Positions 1-5,225 of a DNA stretch of 5,225 nt are shown here, in pieces. Each line of letters opens with the position of its first letter. The first letter of the stretch is position 1. This DNA comes from a virus (taxonomy: Duplodnaviria > Heunggongvirae > Uroviricota > Caudoviricetes): positions 1-5,225 of IMG/VR virus record IMGVR_UViG_648276652_000011; one strand, 5' to 3'. Made by a program: the position numbers and the translations under genes. A model generated the notes under the pieces. That model searched no databases and was not told the origin of the DNA. It saw only the letters and a program-made list of their open reading frames with translations.

Positions 1-739
<739 letters not shown>

Positions 740-762
740 GTGCGGTTTTACCGCATACCAAT

Positions 763-785
763 AACGCTTCACTCGAGGCGTTTTT
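763..785 (+). terminator. Putative hairpin plus T5 in the ea10-cIII intergenic region (attenuator or terminator-like)
   Basis: cgcttc (765-770) pairs with gaggcg (775-780) including one G-U pair; loop actc; followed by ttttt (781-785). It lies 17 nt upstream of the cIII SD aggag (802-806). Confidence 0.35.
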
Positions 786-811
786 CGTTATGTATAAATA
801 AGGAGCACACC

Positions 812-976
812 ATGCAATATGCCATTGCAGGGTGGCCTGTTGCTGGCTGCCCTTCCGAATCTTTACTTGAACGAATCACCCGTAAATTACGTGACGGATG
901 GAAACGCCTTATCGACATACTTAATCAGCCAGGAGTCCCAAAGAATGGATCAAACACTTATGGCTATCCAGACTAA
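812..976 (+). CDS. cIII: CIII, inhibitor of FtsH-mediated CII degradation (54 aa)
   Basis: [54 protein letters not shown] matches lambda CIII as I recall it. SD aggag at 802-806, 5 nt before ATG 812. The ORF-track start at 740 is an upstream extension. Confidence 0.9.
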   Translation: MQYAIAGWPVAGCPSESLLERITRKLRDGWKRLIDILNQPGVPKNGSNTYGYPD

Positions 977-1088
977 ATTCACTATCGCCACTTTTATTGG
1001 CGATGAAAAGATGTTTCGTGAAGCCGTCGACGCTTATAAAAAATGGATATTAATGCTGAAACTGAGATCAAGCAAAAGCATTCACTAA
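945..1088 (+). CDS. kil: Kil, host cell-division (FtsZ) inhibitor (47 aa)
   Basis: [47 protein letters not shown]. The start overlaps the cIII 3' end by 32 bp and the 3' end overlaps the long gam start, as in lambda. SD aggag at 931-935. Confidence 0.9.
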
Positions 1089-1459
1089 CCCCCTTTCCTG
1101 TTTTCCTAATCAGCCTGGCATTTCGCGGGCGATATTTTCACAGCTATTTCAGGAGTTCAGCCATGAACGCTTATTACATTCAGGATCGTCTTGAGGCTCA
1201 GAGCTGGGCGCGTCACTACCAGCAGATCGCCCGTGAAGAGAAAGAGGCAGAACTGGCAGACGACATGGAAAAAGGCCTGCCCCAGCACCTGTTTGAATCG
1301 CTATGCATCGATCATTTGCAACGCCACGGGGCCAGCAAAAAAGCCATTACCCGTGCATTTGATGACGATGTTGAGTTTCAGGAGCGCATGGCGGAACACA
1401 TCCGGTACATGGTTGAAACCATTGCTCACCACCAGGTTGATATTGATTCAGAGGTATAA
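1043..1459 (+). CDS. gam: Gam, RecBCD/SbcCD nuclease inhibitor (138-aa long form; GamS from the internal ATG at 1163)
   Basis: The translation matches lambda Gam as recalled ([23 protein letters not shown]... [10 protein letters not shown]). The internal ATG at 1163 ([13 protein letters not shown]...) has a strong SD aggag at 1151-1155 and gives the 98-aa GamS form. Confidence 0.95.
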
Positions 1460-1464
1460 AACGG

Positions 1465-2250
1465 ATGAGTACAGCACTCGCAACGCTGGCTGGGAAGCTG
1501 GCTGAACGAGTCGGCATGGATTCTGTCGACCCACAGGAACTGATCACTACTCTTCGCCAGACGGCATTTAAAGGTGATGCCAGCGATGCGCAGTTCATCG
1601 CATTGTTGATCGTCGCCAACCAGTACGGCCTTAATCCGTGGACGAAAGAAATTTACGCCTTCCCTGACAAGCAGAACGGCATCGTTCCGGTGGTGGGCGT
1701 TGATGGCTGGTCCCGCATCATCAATGAAAACCAGCAGTTTGATGGCATGGACTTTGAGCAGGACAATGAATCCTGCACATGCCGGATTTACCGCAAGGAC
1801 CGTAATCATCCGATCTGCGTTACCGAGTGGATGGATGAATGCCGCCGCGAACCATTCAAAACCCGCGAAGGCAGAGAAATCACCGGACCGTGGCAGTCGC
1901 ATCCCAAACGGATGTTACGGCATAAAGCCATGATTCAGTGTGCCCGTCTGGCCTTCGGATTTGCGGGTATCTATGACAAGGATGAAGCCGAGCGCATTGT
2001 CGAAAATACCGCATACACTGCAGAACGTCAGCCGGAACGCGACATCACTCCGGTTAACGATGAAACCATGCAGGAGATTAACACTCTGCTGATCGCCCTG
2101 GATAAAACATGGGATGACGACTTATTGCCGCTCTGTTCCCAGATATTTCGCCGCGACATTCGCGCATCGTCAGAACTGACACAGGCCGAAGCAGTGAAAG
2201 CTCTTGGATTCCTGAAACAGAAAGCCACTGAGCAGAAGGTGGCAGCATGA
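1465..2250 (+). CDS. bet: Bet (Red-beta) single-strand annealing recombinase (261 aa)
   Basis: [64 protein letters not shown]... I recognise this as lambda Red-beta; it starts 5 nt after the gam stop. Confidence 0.97.
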
Positions 2251-2927
2251 CACCGGACATTATCCTGCAGCGTACCGGGATCGACGTGAGAGCTGTCGAA
2301 CAGGGGGATCATGCGTGGCACAAATTACGGCTCGGCGTCATCACCGCTTCAGAAGTTCACAATGTGATAGCAAAACCCCGCTCCGGAAAGAAATGGCCTG
2401 ACATGAAAATGTCCTACTTCCACACCCTGCTGGCTGAGGTTTGCACCGGTGTGGCTCCGGAAGTTAATGCTAAGGCGCTGGCCTGGGGAAAACAGTACGA
2501 GAACGACGCCAGAACCCTGTTTGAATTCACTTCCGGCGTGAATGTTACTGAATCCCCGATCATCTATCGCGACGAAAGTATGCGCACCGCCTGCTCTCCC
2601 GATGGTTTATGCAGTGACGGCAACGGCCTTGAACTGAAATGCCCGTTTACCTCCCGGGATTTCATGAAGTTCCGGCTCGGTGGTTTCGAGGCCATAAAAT
2701 CGGCTTACATGGCCCAGGTGCAGTACAGCATGTGGGTGACGCGAAAAGATGCCTGGTACTTTGCCAACTATGACCCGCGTATGAAGCGTGAAGGCCTGCA
2801 TTATGTCGTGATTGAGCGGAATGAAAAGTACATGGCGAATTTTGACGAGATGGTGCCGGAGTTCATCGAAAAAATGGACGTGGCACTGGCTGAAATTGGT
2901 TTTGTATTTGGGGAGCAATGGCGATGA
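2247..2927 (+). CDS. exo: Lambda exonuclease Exo (Red-alpha), 5'-3' dsDNA exonuclease (226 aa)
   Basis: [64 protein letters not shown]... I recognise this as lambda Exo. ATGA start/stop overlap with bet (2247-2250). Confidence 0.97.
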
Positions 2928-3106
2928 AGCATCCTCACGATAATATCCGGGTAGGCGCGATCACTTTCGTCTACTCCGTTACAAAGCGAGGCTGGGTATT
3001 TCCCGGCCTTCCTGTTATCCGAAATCCCCTGAAAGCACAGCGACTGGCTGAGGAGATAAATAATAAACGGGGGGCTGTATGCACAAAGCATCTCCTGTTG
3101 AGTTAA
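2924..3106 (+). CDS. orf60a: Lambda Orf60a-like small protein (60 aa)
   Basis: The second ATG (2924) overlaps the exo stop as ATGA and has the SD gggag (2911-2915) at 8-nt spacing. It gives 60 codons, with the same size and position as lambda orf60a. The ORF-track start at 2918 is too close to the SD. Confidence 0.75.
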
Positions 3107-3270
3107 GAACGTGTATCGAGATGGCACATAGCCTCGCTCAAATTGGAGTCAGGTTTGTGCCAATACCAGTAGAAACAGACGAAGAATTTCATACGTTAGC
3201 CGCATCCCTTTCACAAAAGCTGGAAATGATGGTGGCGAAAGCAGAAGCAGATGAGAGAGACCAGGTATGA
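3079..3270 (+). CDS. orf63: Lambda Orf63-like small protein (63 aa)
   Basis: The 63-codon ORF overlaps the orf60a 3' end by 28 bp, as I recall for the orf63/orf60a arrangement in lambda. SD gggggg at 3069-3074. Confidence 0.8.
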   Translation: MHKASPVELRTCIEMAHSLAQIGVRFVPIPVETDEEFHTLAASLSQKLEMMVAKAEADERDQV

Positions 3271-3350
3271 CAACCACTGAATGCATTTTTCTGGCAGCGG
3301 GCTTCATATTATGTGTGCTTATGCTTGCCGACATGGGGCTTGTTCAGTGA
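3267..3350 (+). CDS. Candidate 27-aa hydrophobic (single-TM-like) peptide, MTTTECIFLAAGFILCVLMLADMGLVQ; speculative
   Basis: The ATG overlaps the orf63 stop as ATGA (3267-3270), with purine-rich gagagag 8-9 nt upstream. The stop TGA (3348-3350) overlaps a GTG (3347) in the frame of the next ORF. It is below the ORF-track size cutoff and is read by eye only. Confidence 0.3.
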   Translation: MTTTECIFLAAGFILCVLMLADMGLVQ

Positions 3351-3562
3351 CACCTCAGCAAGAAAACGCCCTTCGCAGCATTGCCCGTCAGGCTAATTCT
3401 GAAATCAAAAAAGCCAGACAGCAGTTTCCGGATAAAAACGTCGATGACATTTGCCGTAGCGTACTAAAGAAGCACCGCGAAACGGTAACGCTGATGGGAT
3501 TCACACCGACTCATTTAAGCCTGGCGATCGGCATGTTAAACGGCGTCTTTAAGGAACGGTGA
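3281..3562 (+). CDS. Hypothetical small protein (93 aa from ATG 3281; alternatively 71 aa from GTG 3347)
   Basis: Open frame with a helical-looking, charged C-terminal 70 aa (TPQQENALRSIARQANSEIKKARQQF...). There is no SD before ATG 3281, but a G-rich SD (gggg, 3336-3339) lies 7 nt before GTG 3347. The N-terminal 22 aa are Cys/His-rich (CAYACRHGAC). The start is uncertain. Confidence 0.5.
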   Translation: MHFSGSGLHIMCAYACRHGACSVTPQQENALRSIARQANSEIKKARQQFPDKNVDDICRSVLKKHRETVTLMGFTPTHLSLAIGMLNGVFKER

Positions 3563-3582
3563 ACATGAAAAGCAAAATCATC

Positions 3583-3608
3583 AGGGAGCTACAGGCTCCT
3601 TTTTTATT
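3583..3608 (+). terminator. Rho-independent terminator-like hairpin
   Basis: Stem ggagc (3585-3589) pairs with gctcc (3595-3599), loop tacag, followed by tttttt (3600-3605). Flanking pairs extend the stem to 7 bp. Confidence 0.6.
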
Positions 3609-3660
3609 ATTCGCATTTACCCTCAAGCGTATTAACCAACAATTCAGGGATTAATGAAAG

Positions 3661-3882
3661 ATGGCAGACATCATTGATTCAGCATCAGAAATCGAAGAAT
3701 TACAGCGCAATACAGCAATAAAAATGCGTCGTCTGAACTACCAGACTGTATCCGCAACTCATTGTTGTGAATGTGGCGATCCGATAGATGAGCGAAGACG
3801 CCTGGCCGTTCAGGGTTGTCGGACTTGTGCAAGTTGCCAGGAAGATCTGGAGCTTATCAGTAAACAGAGAGGTTCGAAGTGA
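3661..3882 (+). CDS. TraR/DksA-family C4 zinc-finger protein (73 aa), lambda Orf73-like RNA polymerase-binding regulator
   Basis: The 73-aa protein has CxxC...CxxC spacing (C-E-C-G ... C-R-T-C-A-S-C) near the C-terminus, and its size is typical of TraR-like proteins. Confidence 0.8.
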   Translation: MADIIDSASEIEELQRNTAIKMRRLNYQTVSATHCCECGDPIDERRRLAVQGCRTCASCQEDLELISKQRGSK

Positions 3883-4250
3883 GCGAAATTAACTCTCAGG
3901 CACTGCGTGAAGCGGCAGAGCAGGCAATGCATGACAACTGGGGATTTGACGCGGACCTTTTCCATGAGCTGGTAACACCATCGATTGTGCTGGCACTGCT
4001 GGATGAACGGGAAAGAAACCAGCAATACGTCAAACGCCGCGACAATGAGAACGAGGATATTGCACTAACGGTAGGGAGGCTGCGCGTTGAGCTGGAAGGC
4101 AAACACAGGCGCATTACTGAGCTGACAATGTGGATTAAGCGACTGAGTTCCTCTCTCAAAAACGCAAAACCAGACAGCAAGTTGCCGGATGACGCAATGA
4201 TCTGGCTAAATAATGAAGGGCTTACCAGTATAGAGGATATTTTACGATGA
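3879..4250 (+). CDS. Ea22-like (ead/Ea22 family) N-terminal-domain protein (123 aa), GTG start
   Basis: N-terminus MSEINSQALREAAEQAMHDNWGFDADLF carries the QALREAAE signature I associate with Ea22-family proteins. The GTG start overlaps the upstream stop (GTGA, 3879-3882); SD agagagg at 3866-3872. Confidence 0.65.
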   Translation: MSEINSQALREAAEQAMHDNWGFDADLFHELVTPSIVLALLDERERNQQYVKRRDNENEDIALTVGRLRVELEGKHRRITELTMWIKRLSSSLKNAKPDSKLPDDAMIWLNNEGLTSIEDILR

Positions 4251-4894
4251 GCACTTTTACCATGGAATGGCTACAAAATACGATTACCAGTATTGAGTCA
4301 GCACGAGATGAAATGCCATTCGGACTCGACAACGATCAAGCACACATGCTTACAGCATTTAAAATCGCTCTCGCCTCACTGGAACGCGAGCGGGTTCGCC
4401 ACGAGCATGCCAAATGGTCTGACTCCACATTTGGCTGCGTTGGCCCCATTGGTCCACTGAAACACCTCTCAAAAGAGGCTCTGGAAGCCGCAGCCGAACC
4501 TGACGATCTCAGCGAGTGGGCTGATATGCAGTTCCTGTTGTGGGATGCACAGCGCCGTGCTGGTATCAGTGATGCTGAAATTACCGCTGCTATGGAAAAT
4601 AAATTGAAGATCAACATGGAGCGCCAGTGGCCTGAACCAAAAGATGGTGAGCCTCGTTTGCACATTAAAGAACCCGGCAACTCTCCGGTAACTCCGGATG
4701 GTTGGATAAGCTGTAGTGAGCTAATGCCAGATGATGGTCAGCACGTAATTATTTTATGTGATGGCGCATTCGTTCTTTATGCGCAATATCGAGACGGAGA
4801 GTTTTTCGATATTGTCCGCAATGGTGATGAATTTTTCGAAACACAGAGTCGCAATGTAACCGACTGGATGCAACTACCAGAACCTCCTCTTTGA
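4247..4894 (+). CDS. Phage protein with DUF550-like (MazG-like NTP pyrophosphohydrolase-type) N-terminal region and DUF551-like C-terminal domain (215 aa)
   Basis: ATGA overlap with the upstream gene; SD gagga at 4233-4237. The C-terminus ...VTDWMQLPEPPL resembles the DUF551 signature. The N-terminal region has acidic helices KEALEAAAE and SEWAD plus NKLKINMERQ, resembling MazG-type metal-binding motifs. Confidence 0.7.
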   Translation: MSTFTMEWLQNTITSIESARDEMPFGLDNDQAHMLTAFKIALASLERERVRHEHAKWSDSTFGCVGPIGPLKHLSKEALEAAAEPDDLSEWADMQFLLWDAQRRAGISDAEITAAMENKLKINMERQWPEPKDGEPRLHIKEPGNSPVTPDGWISCSELMPDDGQHVIILCDGAFVLYAQYRDGEFFDIVRNGDEFFETQSRNVTDWMQLPEPPL

Positions 4895-4996
4895 TAGCTA
4901 AGCTTATACATATCTTTTACATCAGCAATCTATTGTTAATCTCCAATCAATGTTACGTTGTCATCTCTCTCATGCTTTGGAGGTAGTGATATGTCT

Positions 4997-5225
4997 TGGA
5001 TTTGCCCCTATATTTCCAGACACCTGTTATCACTTAACCCATTACTGGCTTGCTGCCGTAGATATTCCCGTGGCGAGCGATAACCCAGTGCACTATGCGG
5101 ATGCCATTCGTTATAATGCTCGAACGCCTCTGCAAGGTTCTTTGCTGCCGTTAACCCGTCTGGTTTGGGCATGACACTGATGTAGTCACGCTTTATCGTT
5201 TTCACGAAGCTCTCTGCTATGTCCG
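4997..5225 (-). mobile_element. IS2-like element (IS3 family), terminal inverted repeat and 3' portion; partial, continues off the right edge
   Basis: The + strand reads tggatttgcccctatatttccagaca from 4997, which is the reverse complement of the IS2 end (...TCTGGAAATATAGGGGCAAATCCA) as I recall it. The adjacent transposase C-terminus matches IS2. Confidence 0.88.
5008..5225 (-). CDS. insD: IS2-like transposase OrfB (InsD), C-terminal 72 codons (partial)
   Basis: The - strand encodes ...[71 protein letters not shown] with stop at rc 5008-5010. The frame is open to the window edge. The 'M' in the ORF track is an internal GTG. Confidence 0.9.

Follow-up and report, generated by a model that had tools for sequence, protein, structure and literature searches.

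Background

Overlapping stop and start codons (ATGA or UGAUG) couple the translation of neighbouring genes in trpE-trpD and trpB-trpA, and throughout phage early operons. Small hydrophobic proteins of fewer than 50 amino acids (aa) include the type I toxins Ibs, Ldr, TisB and DinQ as well as the inner-membrane proteins KdpF and AcrZ. Here we analyze a locus that resembles both, in a stretch of 5,225 nt from a virus of the class Caudoviricetes (IMG/VR record IMGVR_UViG_648276652_000011, positions 1 to 5,225; "the window" refers to this entire stretch). The element in question is a 27-codon open reading frame (ORF), here called the mini-ORF, which lies between orf63 and an Orf61-family gene and is annotated in none of the phage and RefSeq records examined. 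We consider it probable that the locus consists of two genes, the mini-ORF encoding a small hydrophobic protein that would be translated and would also relay ribosomes to Orf61. The mini-ORF would thus be a new, previously undiscussed small-gene candidate in a well-studied phage.

The closest described genes are orf61 of lambda, vb_24B_7c of Phi24B and L0070 of 933W. Over positions 3050-3700, the window shares 97-99% identity with 180 phage records, among them those of lambda, 933W, Phi24B and many Shiga toxin (Stx) phages; both lambda and the Stx phages serve as reference systems. The gene orf61 has been deleted, frameshifted, modelled and given a pro-lytic role on the basis of 61- or 93-aa models (PMC6213356, PMC4195576, PMC8614690). 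Deletions were made in lambda and Phi24B (Dydecka et al., 2018, PMC6213356), and 1-bp frameshift constructs are also available (PMC4195576). The literature on the exo-xis region describes Phi24B Orf61 as a 93-aa protein and lambda Orf61 as a truncated version of it, with residues 1-23 modelling inconsistently (PMC8614690); Donaldson et al. (2021, PMC8614690) left these residues out of the model statistics.

Annotated start sites differ widely. The models in use are:
From the equivalent of 3251: 61-aa model, lambda
51-aa model, lambda imm21
From the equivalent of 3281: 93-aa model, Phi24B vb_24B_7c and 933W L0070 (GenBank)
From ATG 3311: 83-aa model, Prokaryotic Genome Annotation Pipeline (PGAP), copy in E. 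coli strain MB15
From the equivalent of 3347: 71-aa model, RefSeq phages, sometimes named ZapA

For the same DNA, present pipelines give models of 61, 71, 83, 93 and 100 aa. To judge from the frame analysis below, the models starting at ATG 3251, 3281 and 3311 read the mini-ORF out of frame and are apparent annotation artefacts.

Geometry of the locus

The features of the locus are, in window coordinates:
3251-3280, + strand: ATG equivalent to the lambda orf61 start, closed by TGA 3278-3280; not a real start
3267-3270, + strand: ATGA junction of orf63 stop and mini-ORF start, read from the sequence
3267-3350, + strand: mini-ORF, 27 codons, hydrophobic peptide MTTTECIFLAAGFILCVLMLADMGLVQ
3281-3562, + strand: 93-codon ORF, starting with ATG 3281 directly after TGA 3278-3280
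3281-3346, + strand: N-terminal extension (22 codons) of the 93-aa ORF, open, unconstrained in the 93-aa frame
3347-3350, + strand: GTGA junction of 71-aa start and mini-ORF stop
3347-3562, + strand: Orf61-family gene, 71 aa, three helices
3407-3412, + strand: A6 run; A7 in lambda, causing a frameshift

A preliminary description, made from the window alone, had placed ATG 3251 at the position of the lambda orf61 start. This agrees with the lambda coordinates (orf61 30839-31024, orf63 31005-31196, a 20-bp overlap). Its account of the reading frames also stands in the sequence and ORF list: nine sense codons lead from ATG 3251 to TGA 3278-3280, followed in frame by ATG 3281 and the 93-codon ORF, and a 71-codon ORF begins at GTG 3347, within a GTGA shared with the mini-ORF stop, and runs to 3562. 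It had left the choice between a 93-aa protein and a membrane peptide plus a 71-aa protein; the second is favoured by a frame-specific synonymous excess and by the starts of distant homologues.

By size alone the mini-ORF is within chance expectation, as 26 ORFs of at least 20 aa overlap the same 1 kb. It stands above chance because of the comparative evidence. Overlaps also occur between the pL-operon neighbours bet-exo, exo-orf60a and orf60a-orf63.

In the two-gene reading, ribosomes ending orf63 (or, in some relatives, a methyltransferase gene) at TGA 3268-3270 would reinitiate at ATG 3267. They would make the 27-residue hydrophobic peptide, which would partition into the membrane, then stop at TGA 3348-3350 and reinitiate at GTG 3347 (ATG in most relatives) to produce the 71-aa Orf61.

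Frame-specific selection

Loci from IMG/VR (found by protein and by DNA pattern), metagenome contigs and GenBank phages were pooled and aligned to the window (348 loci). The metagenome contigs were anchored inside the 71-aa gene and are thus unbiased as to the mini-ORF (108 loci). Each combination of site and allele was scored once, using alleles found in at least two of about 330 loci, with 25% of changes expected to be synonymous. A permutation test kept the mutation type and relocated each change among sites with the same base.

Purifying selection at the locus is frame-specific. Between 3270 and 3346, the mini-ORF frame has 12 synonymous and 8 non-synonymous changes (binomial p=0.0009, permutation p=0.002). 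The same stretch scores 5:15 in the 93-aa frame (p=0.57 and 0.68 in the two tests) and 4:16 in the third frame (not significant). Among alleles found in at least five loci, the ratio is 8:3 in the mini-ORF frame versus 2:9 in the 93-aa frame (Fisher p=0.015). Between 3350 and 3559, the excess is found in the 71-aa frame (20:15, p=6e-5), and the mini-ORF frame has 6:29 (not significant). Neighbouring genes used as controls gave 25:15 (orf73) and 19:17 (orf60a). Because the synonymous excess moves from the mini-ORF frame to the 71-aa frame, the frame under selection is seen to switch at the GTGA/ATGA junction (3347-3350), as far as the variants indicate. The preliminary description had proposed asking which frame is synonymous-biased among homologues; the answer is the mini-ORF frame up to 3346 and the 71-aa frame from 3350 on.

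Single sites illustrate the pattern. Site 3278 has three alleles (T/G/A), which always encode Thr in the mini-ORF frame; the long frame then reads TGA, GGA or AGA. Site 3311, a third position in the mini-ORF frame, also has three alleles (C/T/A). An A or G at 3347 is synonymous in the mini-ORF (CAA/CAG). The change C3329T, a stop in the 93-aa frame that is silent in the mini-ORF, is absent from 5426 complete E. coli genomes, which is uninformative as it concerns one site only. Indel density was rejected as a discriminator of gene models, being too low everywhere.

The window copy carries rare alleles at two of these positions, C3311A (F15L in the peptide and a new ATG in the long frame) and A3347G (changing the Orf61 start to GTG). 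These alleles lead to the 83-aa PGAP coding sequence (CDS) in the MB15 copy (L349, 3545-3796), which is identical to the window over the mini-ORF stretch.

The mini-ORF and its peptide

The preliminary description had given the mini-ORF an ATGA overlap with the orf63 stop and a plausible Shine-Dalgarno (SD) sequence. The overlap stands, but the SD is weak in the window copy: a purine run (GAGAGAGA, 3253-3260, + strand), separated from the ATG by a 6-nt gap, has an SD-like anti-SD duplex of -5.3 kcal/mol, and the AGG at 3263-3265 is too near the ATG to serve. Initiation at ATG 3267 in this copy would therefore occur mainly by termination-reinitiation, if the proposed mechanism holds. In a second context, a Dam-like N6-adenine methyltransferase gene (3' end CGGGAGGCTGCATGA) precedes the mini-ORF with the same ATGA overlap, and the SD is GGGAGG (-10.3 kcal/mol, 3-4 nt gap). 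Homology of the methyltransferase-context copies to the orf63-context copies starts exactly at the mini-ORF ATG, which marks a mosaic junction.

The ATGA is invariant in 290 orf63-context loci while the last two orf63 residues vary (QV, PA, PV, LV, LA). It is kept in all upstream contexts examined, namely the orf63 alleles, the Dam-like methyltransferase gene and a 355-aa gene with a DGQHR motif that takes the place of orf63 in one locus (L088, Escherichia sp. E1V33; 371-1716).

The mini-ORF is free of indels in 317 of 318 collinear loci, and 279 encode the identical peptide; given the low divergence, this is weak evidence by itself. Among the metagenome loci, 99 of 108 have an intact mini-ORF and four more encode a 26-aa variant, in which CAA to TAA drops the last residue and a TAATG overlap is kept. 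One metagenome contig (1.3x coverage) has a 1-nt deletion in the mini-ORF.

A full-length match to the peptide is found in 175 phage records. The 84-nt mini-ORF sequence is present in 3011 of the 5426 complete E. coli genomes, that is, in over half, with a 100% identical copy in strain MB15. The exact peptide occurs in GenBank and UniProt as an automatically assigned "hypothetical protein" (for example UniRef A0A0A2SGE8_ECOLX; 981 contigs). It was not found in a literature search, nor in the supplements of a ribosome profiling study of enterohaemorrhagic E. coli.

The hydrophobic nature of the 27-mer, already noted in the preliminary description, is borne out by a grand average of hydropathy (GRAVY) of 1.66 and by Kyte-Doolittle values of 2.38 for the best 19-residue window and 2.94 for a 15-residue core. 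The apolar core spans about 15-21 residues, CIFLAAGFI(L/F)CVLMLA, with Asp at position 21; at about 15-16 residues, the strictly apolar run is short. Lys and Arg are absent and the only charged residues are E5 and D21, so that the peptide shows no positive-inside pattern. From its composition, the peptide is probably membrane-embedded.

Neither strand has a promoter-like site near 3200-3400. Between 2900 and 3900 there is a single such site (3635-3606, minus strand), at the level expected by chance. Neither an own promoter nor an antisense RNA antitoxin, which characterize type I toxins, was detected. The preliminary description had pointed to toxicity or exclusion as common roles of small hydrophobic phage peptides; for this peptide such a role is a conjecture, and it could act mainly as a ribosome relay.

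Start and identity of Orf61

Orf61 homologues were collected by an exhaustive HMMER search of 1.84 billion representatives. This yielded about 20 distant homologues (32-65% identity, 68-78 aa), none with the 22-residue extension. In an alignment of 19 of them, the start Met falls in the column of residue 1 of the 71-aa form in 16, and three have longer called N-termini. The conserved pattern is M-x(4-6)-NALRxIARxxNxEIK ... LGF ... IGVLNGxFxER. Because these homologues, 68-78 aa in length, share the equivalent start Met, we place the Orf61 start at 3347, and the 93-, 83- and 61-aa models appear to be artefacts.

Other observations agree with this start. PHROG 303 matches Orf61 with E=3e-42, and the family (PHROG 303/26061) has a length of about 70 aa; the ORF 3347-3562 fits in length and start, and the 93-aa model does not. 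RefSeq/PGAP annotates the 71-aa CDS in relatives. An E. coli module of the L107 type, seen in 5 of the 108 metagenome loci, has an unrelated 250-aa gene ending 7 nt 5' of the equivalent ATG, and this ATG has its own GAGG SD. AlphaFold predicts three helices for the 71-aa form (mean pLDDT 78.5); in the 93-aa form, residues 1-20 have a pLDDT of 41-56 and the helical body 75-92.

In the window, the 71-aa start is preceded by GGGG (3335-3338, + strand; about 8 nt 5' of the start). The 9-nt site ACAUGGGGC, which ends 7 nt before the start, is modestly SD-like (-4.7 kcal/mol). For ATG 3281 and ATG 3251, no SD lies at a workable distance. Position 3347 is G in 23 of the 108 metagenome loci and in 10 of 191 others; most relatives have ATGA. 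The start used in the lambda model lacks conservation: of the 290 orf63-context loci, 146 have TGA as the codon at 3278 and 49 have ACG as the codon at 3251. An RNA fold masking the 3347 start, as in classical coupling, was considered and rejected, since shuffled sequences fold at least as well as the region does (z=+2.4 and +1.1).

NCBI names many 71-aa copies "cell division protein ZapA". We reject this identity: PF05164 matches residues 24-57 of the 93-aa ORF with E=0.013 and 16.2 bits versus a gathering threshold of 23.8, there is no NCBIfam match, and a Foldseek search of the 71-aa model against the PDB gave no ZapA (best E=1.2). A homeodomain-like fold has been proposed for Phi24B Orf61 (PMC8614690). 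In the Foldseek search of the 71-aa model, the Pitx2 homeodomain was found at E=3 (probability 0.16, template modelling score 0.34), which is not significant.

Residues of about 42-65 of Orf61 (3470-3540, GFTPTHLSLAIGMLNGV) resemble an ankyrin repeat motif weakly. A PDB sequence search with Orf61 gave ankyrins and DARPins (best E=3e-4, no single stretch passing), and the exhaustive search gave multi-stretch matches to long repeat proteins.

Origin of the mini-ORF

In four of the six contexts examined, the gene immediately 5' of a distant Orf61 homologue encodes a DNA adenine methyltransferase (MT-A70 or Dam). Stop and start overlap or abut there, and no mini-ORF is present. In the remaining contexts, the upstream product has no Pfam call (L353) or is a 196-aa product without Pfam match (L354). 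E. coli has the order Dam-like methyltransferase gene, mini-ORF, Orf61. Loci with a methyltransferase gene next to this unit or to an Orf61 homologue are:
L355/L356: 585-1219
L358: 346-1219
L359: 272-1010
L360: 433-1219
L083: 867-1716

The junction in L355 reads ACGGAGGCCGC-ATGACA-CCTGAAACAAGAAAC, and the E. coli methyltransferase context reads CGGGAGGCTGC-ATGACA-[74 nt]-ATGACA-CCTCAGCAGGAAAAC. Since L355 has one ATGACA and E. coli has two, flanking 74 nt, the mini-ORF is on sequence comparison an insertion of 80 nt, with a 6-bp direct repeat (ATGACA) at its borders, in the ATGA junction between methyltransferase and Orf61 genes. The mini-ORF start is therefore the ancestral coupled ATG, and its stop the TGA of the duplicated ATGA. 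As 80 is not a multiple of three, the mini-ORF is out of frame with Orf61. The insertion would have inherited the SD and ATG of the ancestral junction. A derivation of the insert by duplication of flanking DNA was rejected, as alignment scores are at shuffle level.

The mini-ORF module is restricted to Escherichia lambdoid phages. Hits in other taxa were rejected as homologues: they are lambda contamination and carry the lambda A7 frameshift. Such lambda DNA (L089-L102) contaminates GTDB assemblies of unrelated taxa, among them Shewanella, Bradyrhizobium, Pseudomonas, Paenibacillus, Kitasatospora and Oceanobacillus.

The locus would thus provide a clean, datable case of small-ORF birth, in which DNA inserted at an ATGA-coupled junction takes over both a start codon and a supply of ribosomes. 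The contexts also suggest that Orf61 is functionally linked to phage methyltransferases, and the recurrent neighbour is the first and best functional lead for Orf61.

Consequences for lambda orf61

The mini-ORF is intact in lambda (complement 30925-31008). The lambda Orf61 gene starts at 30928, and its A7 run (30862-30868; A6 in relatives) frameshifts the product to 29 aa. The annotated 61-aa product of lambda orf61 therefore consists of 32 out-of-frame residues and a 29-aa stump.

As the mini-ORF lies wholly inside the annotated orf61 interval, deletions of that interval remove it too. If the annotated models are wrong, the published orf61 mutants removed or frameshifted two genes at once, and the modelled N-terminal helix of Orf61 would not exist. 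If the two-gene model is true, the 27-aa peptide would be the sole intact product of the lambda interval.

Phages lacking orf61 show an altered lysis-lysogeny decision and altered prophage induction. Since lambda Orf61 is a 29-aa stump and the mini-ORF is intact within the deleted interval, it might be the 27-residue peptide, and not Orf61, that causes the "orf61" phenotypes, at least those of lambda. The mini-ORF would then be a recent membrane-acting early gene of lambdoid phages, born de novo by an 80-nt insertion capturing a coupled ATG. We put this forward tentatively and consider it rather doubtful.

Alternative explanations

The main rival to the two-gene reading is that the 27-codon ORF is translated just as a ribosome bridge over the 80-nt insertion, with a functionless peptide whose hydrophobicity reflects U-rich codons. 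It ranks first among the rivals since a purely structural role is plausible for an ORF that arose by insertion: the insertion entered a formerly direct ATGA coupling, and start and stop of the mini-ORF are the duplicated junction. Moreover, where relatives have no mini-ORF, Orf61 is coupled directly or has an SD to itself; the peptide is an orphan without basic residues, and loss of its last residue (CAA to TAA) is tolerated in four loci. A mere bridge, however, predicts about 25% synonymous changes, as in the other frames, and we observed 60% (12:8, p=0.002), as high as in the real neighbours. In addition, most non-synonymous variants keep the peptide hydrophobic (F/L, V/I, V/A, T/A, G/V). 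We regard a functionless bridge as possible, but not likely.

The long frame was also considered as the true gene, with a single 93-aa Orf61 from ATG 3281 and the mini-ORF as a chance out-of-frame ORF. The PHROG 303 profile spans residues 1-93 of this model, which is used in the GenBank annotation of Phi24B and 933W and was modelled at 93 aa (PMC8614690); the frame is open in all loci, and the in-frame fusion in L088 has a similar length. Yet codons 2-22 have no synonymous excess (5:15), ATG 3281 lacks an SD, the extension is missing from all distant homologues, and the unrelated gene in L107-type modules stops 7 nt before the 71-aa start. The low AlphaFold confidence for residues 1-20 and the omission of residues 1-23 from the statistics in PMC8614690 point in the same direction, as does the absence of the L088 junction from 5426 E. 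coli genomes. A single 93-aa gene thus appears improbable. Still less probable is dual coding, in which overlapping frames give the mini-peptide and a minor 93-aa isoform. ATG 3281 lies 11 nt past the termination at 3268-3270 and could catch some reinitiating ribosomes, and its frame is open throughout; against this, the long frame is unconstrained in the overlap and ATG 3267 is nearer to the termination site. The wobble pattern might also be due to a 61-aa antisense ORF (3334 to 3149, minus strand), which is intact in 284 of 285 orf63-context loci, shares third positions with the mini-ORF frame and scores 10:10 (alleles in at least two loci). This signal is weaker than that of the sense frame and shows no excess over the orf63 overlap (7:12). 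The antisense ATG is lost by C3332T in the methyltransferase context, the ORF is split by the mosaic junction at 3267, and the synonymous sites 3338 and 3347 fall outside it. It would run antisense within the pL operon, with no promoter-like site upstream on the minus strand. Lacking independent support (10:10 overall, 7:12 over orf63), the antisense ORF was rejected and we find it scarcely credible.

Several observations weigh against the two-gene reading. The locus set is shallow (95-99% identity), so that the selection test comprises 20-26 mutational events; the antisense frame with its shared wobble positions has a weaker excess of its own (10:10), and the 93-aa frame stays open throughout the loci examined. 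The L107-type module and the distant Orf61 homologues do without a mini-ORF. In L088, the junction is 14 nt shorter and the coupled ATG is continuous with the long frame, which yields an Orf61 fusion of 93 aa; because this junction was not found in the 5426 E. coli genomes, it is treated as a one-off deletion. The peptide is an orphan, as tblastn against 50,697 phage records (E up to 10) found nothing outside the module, and it has no match in Pfam, NCBIfam, PADLOC or the PDB (best PHROG E=0.36). The absence of basic flanks is unusual for small membrane proteins. Lambda ribosome profiling (Liu et al., 2013), as cited in PMC8614690, is credited there with only a 7-aa and a 31-aa novel ORF in this region. 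Even so, we hold the two-gene reading to be probable.

Genomic context of the window

The window represents part of a lambdoid pL operon, on the + strand, with these features around the locus:
371-739, + strand: DUF2528 gene
799-857, + strand: Rfam Lambda_thermo (cIII thermoregulator, 88.5 bits), at the start of cIII
Between cIII and bet, + strand: gam
1465-2249, + strand: bet
2247-2927, + strand: exo
2918-3106, + strand: orf60a (DUF1317)
3079-3270, + strand: orf63 (DUF1382; Pfam PF07131, E=8e-32), stop TGA 3268-3270
3583-3611, + strand: intrinsic terminator-like hairpin and T tract, closing the unit
3661-3882, + strand: orf73 (TraR/DksA zinc finger)
3' of orf73, + strand: Ea22-like gene

The hairpin at 3583-3611 is the predicted terminator t2 of Bloch et al. 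(2014, PMC4195576). The cIII thermoregulator (799-857) is the sole Rfam match over the window, and no Rfam family overlaps the locus of the mini-ORF and Orf61. Transposase fragments are found at both window ends (1-131 and about 5010-5225, minus strand), with a helix-turn-helix N-terminus and an rve_3 integrase-core C-terminus. The pL-operon segment is therefore bracketed by insertion sequence elements and probably lies in a defective prophage without pL and N in place.

In contrast to its neighbours, orf63 scores 8 synonymous to 22 non-synonymous changes over 3107-3266, and none of the six frames has an excess of synonymous ones. Its two C-terminal residues are free to vary, and selection on the gene may be relaxed or diversifying. 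The NMR structure of the orf63 (DUF1382) product has been published.

A G run at about 3066-3075 lies near the 3' end of orf60a and is also the SD of orf63. Relatives vary in length around it: 28 of about 296 loci have a 1-nt deletion at 3069/3070, and a few have insertions of 2-3 nt at 3069-3075. Such indels would frameshift the orf60a C-terminus and change the orf63 SD; orf60a is 52 aa long in some relatives.

Downstream, an ORF of 31 aa (GTG 3559; 29 aa from ATG 3565) spans 3559-3654, overlaps the Orf61 stop as GTGA and crosses the terminator at 3583-3611. It is annotated in some phage records and its synonymous excess is marginal (7:9, p=0.05). This ORF is probably the 31-aa "orf2313" from lambda ribosome profiling, to go by the citation of that work in PMC8614690.

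Comparison with known systems

The mini-ORF product is like the small hydrophobic proteins Ibs, Ldr, TisB, DinQ, KdpF and AcrZ in its length, its single apolar stretch and in having been missed by annotation. It differs from them in having no sequence similarity to a known family and no basic flanks, and no antisense RNA or own promoter was detected; its expression is predicted to depend on operon coupling.

With the stop/start coupling systems, the locus shares the ATGA and GTGA overlaps at the two ends of the mini-ORF, both of which are conserved. Here, unlike in those systems, a whole 27-codon ORF lies between two junctions that were duplicated from one, and coupling is predicted.

Lambda orf61, Phi24B vb_24B_7c and 933W L0070 represent the same DNA (97-99% identical to the window) and have the same 71-aa C-terminal part. 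The difference lies in the published models, whose first 22-32 residues would be an out-of-frame reading of the 27-codon gene.

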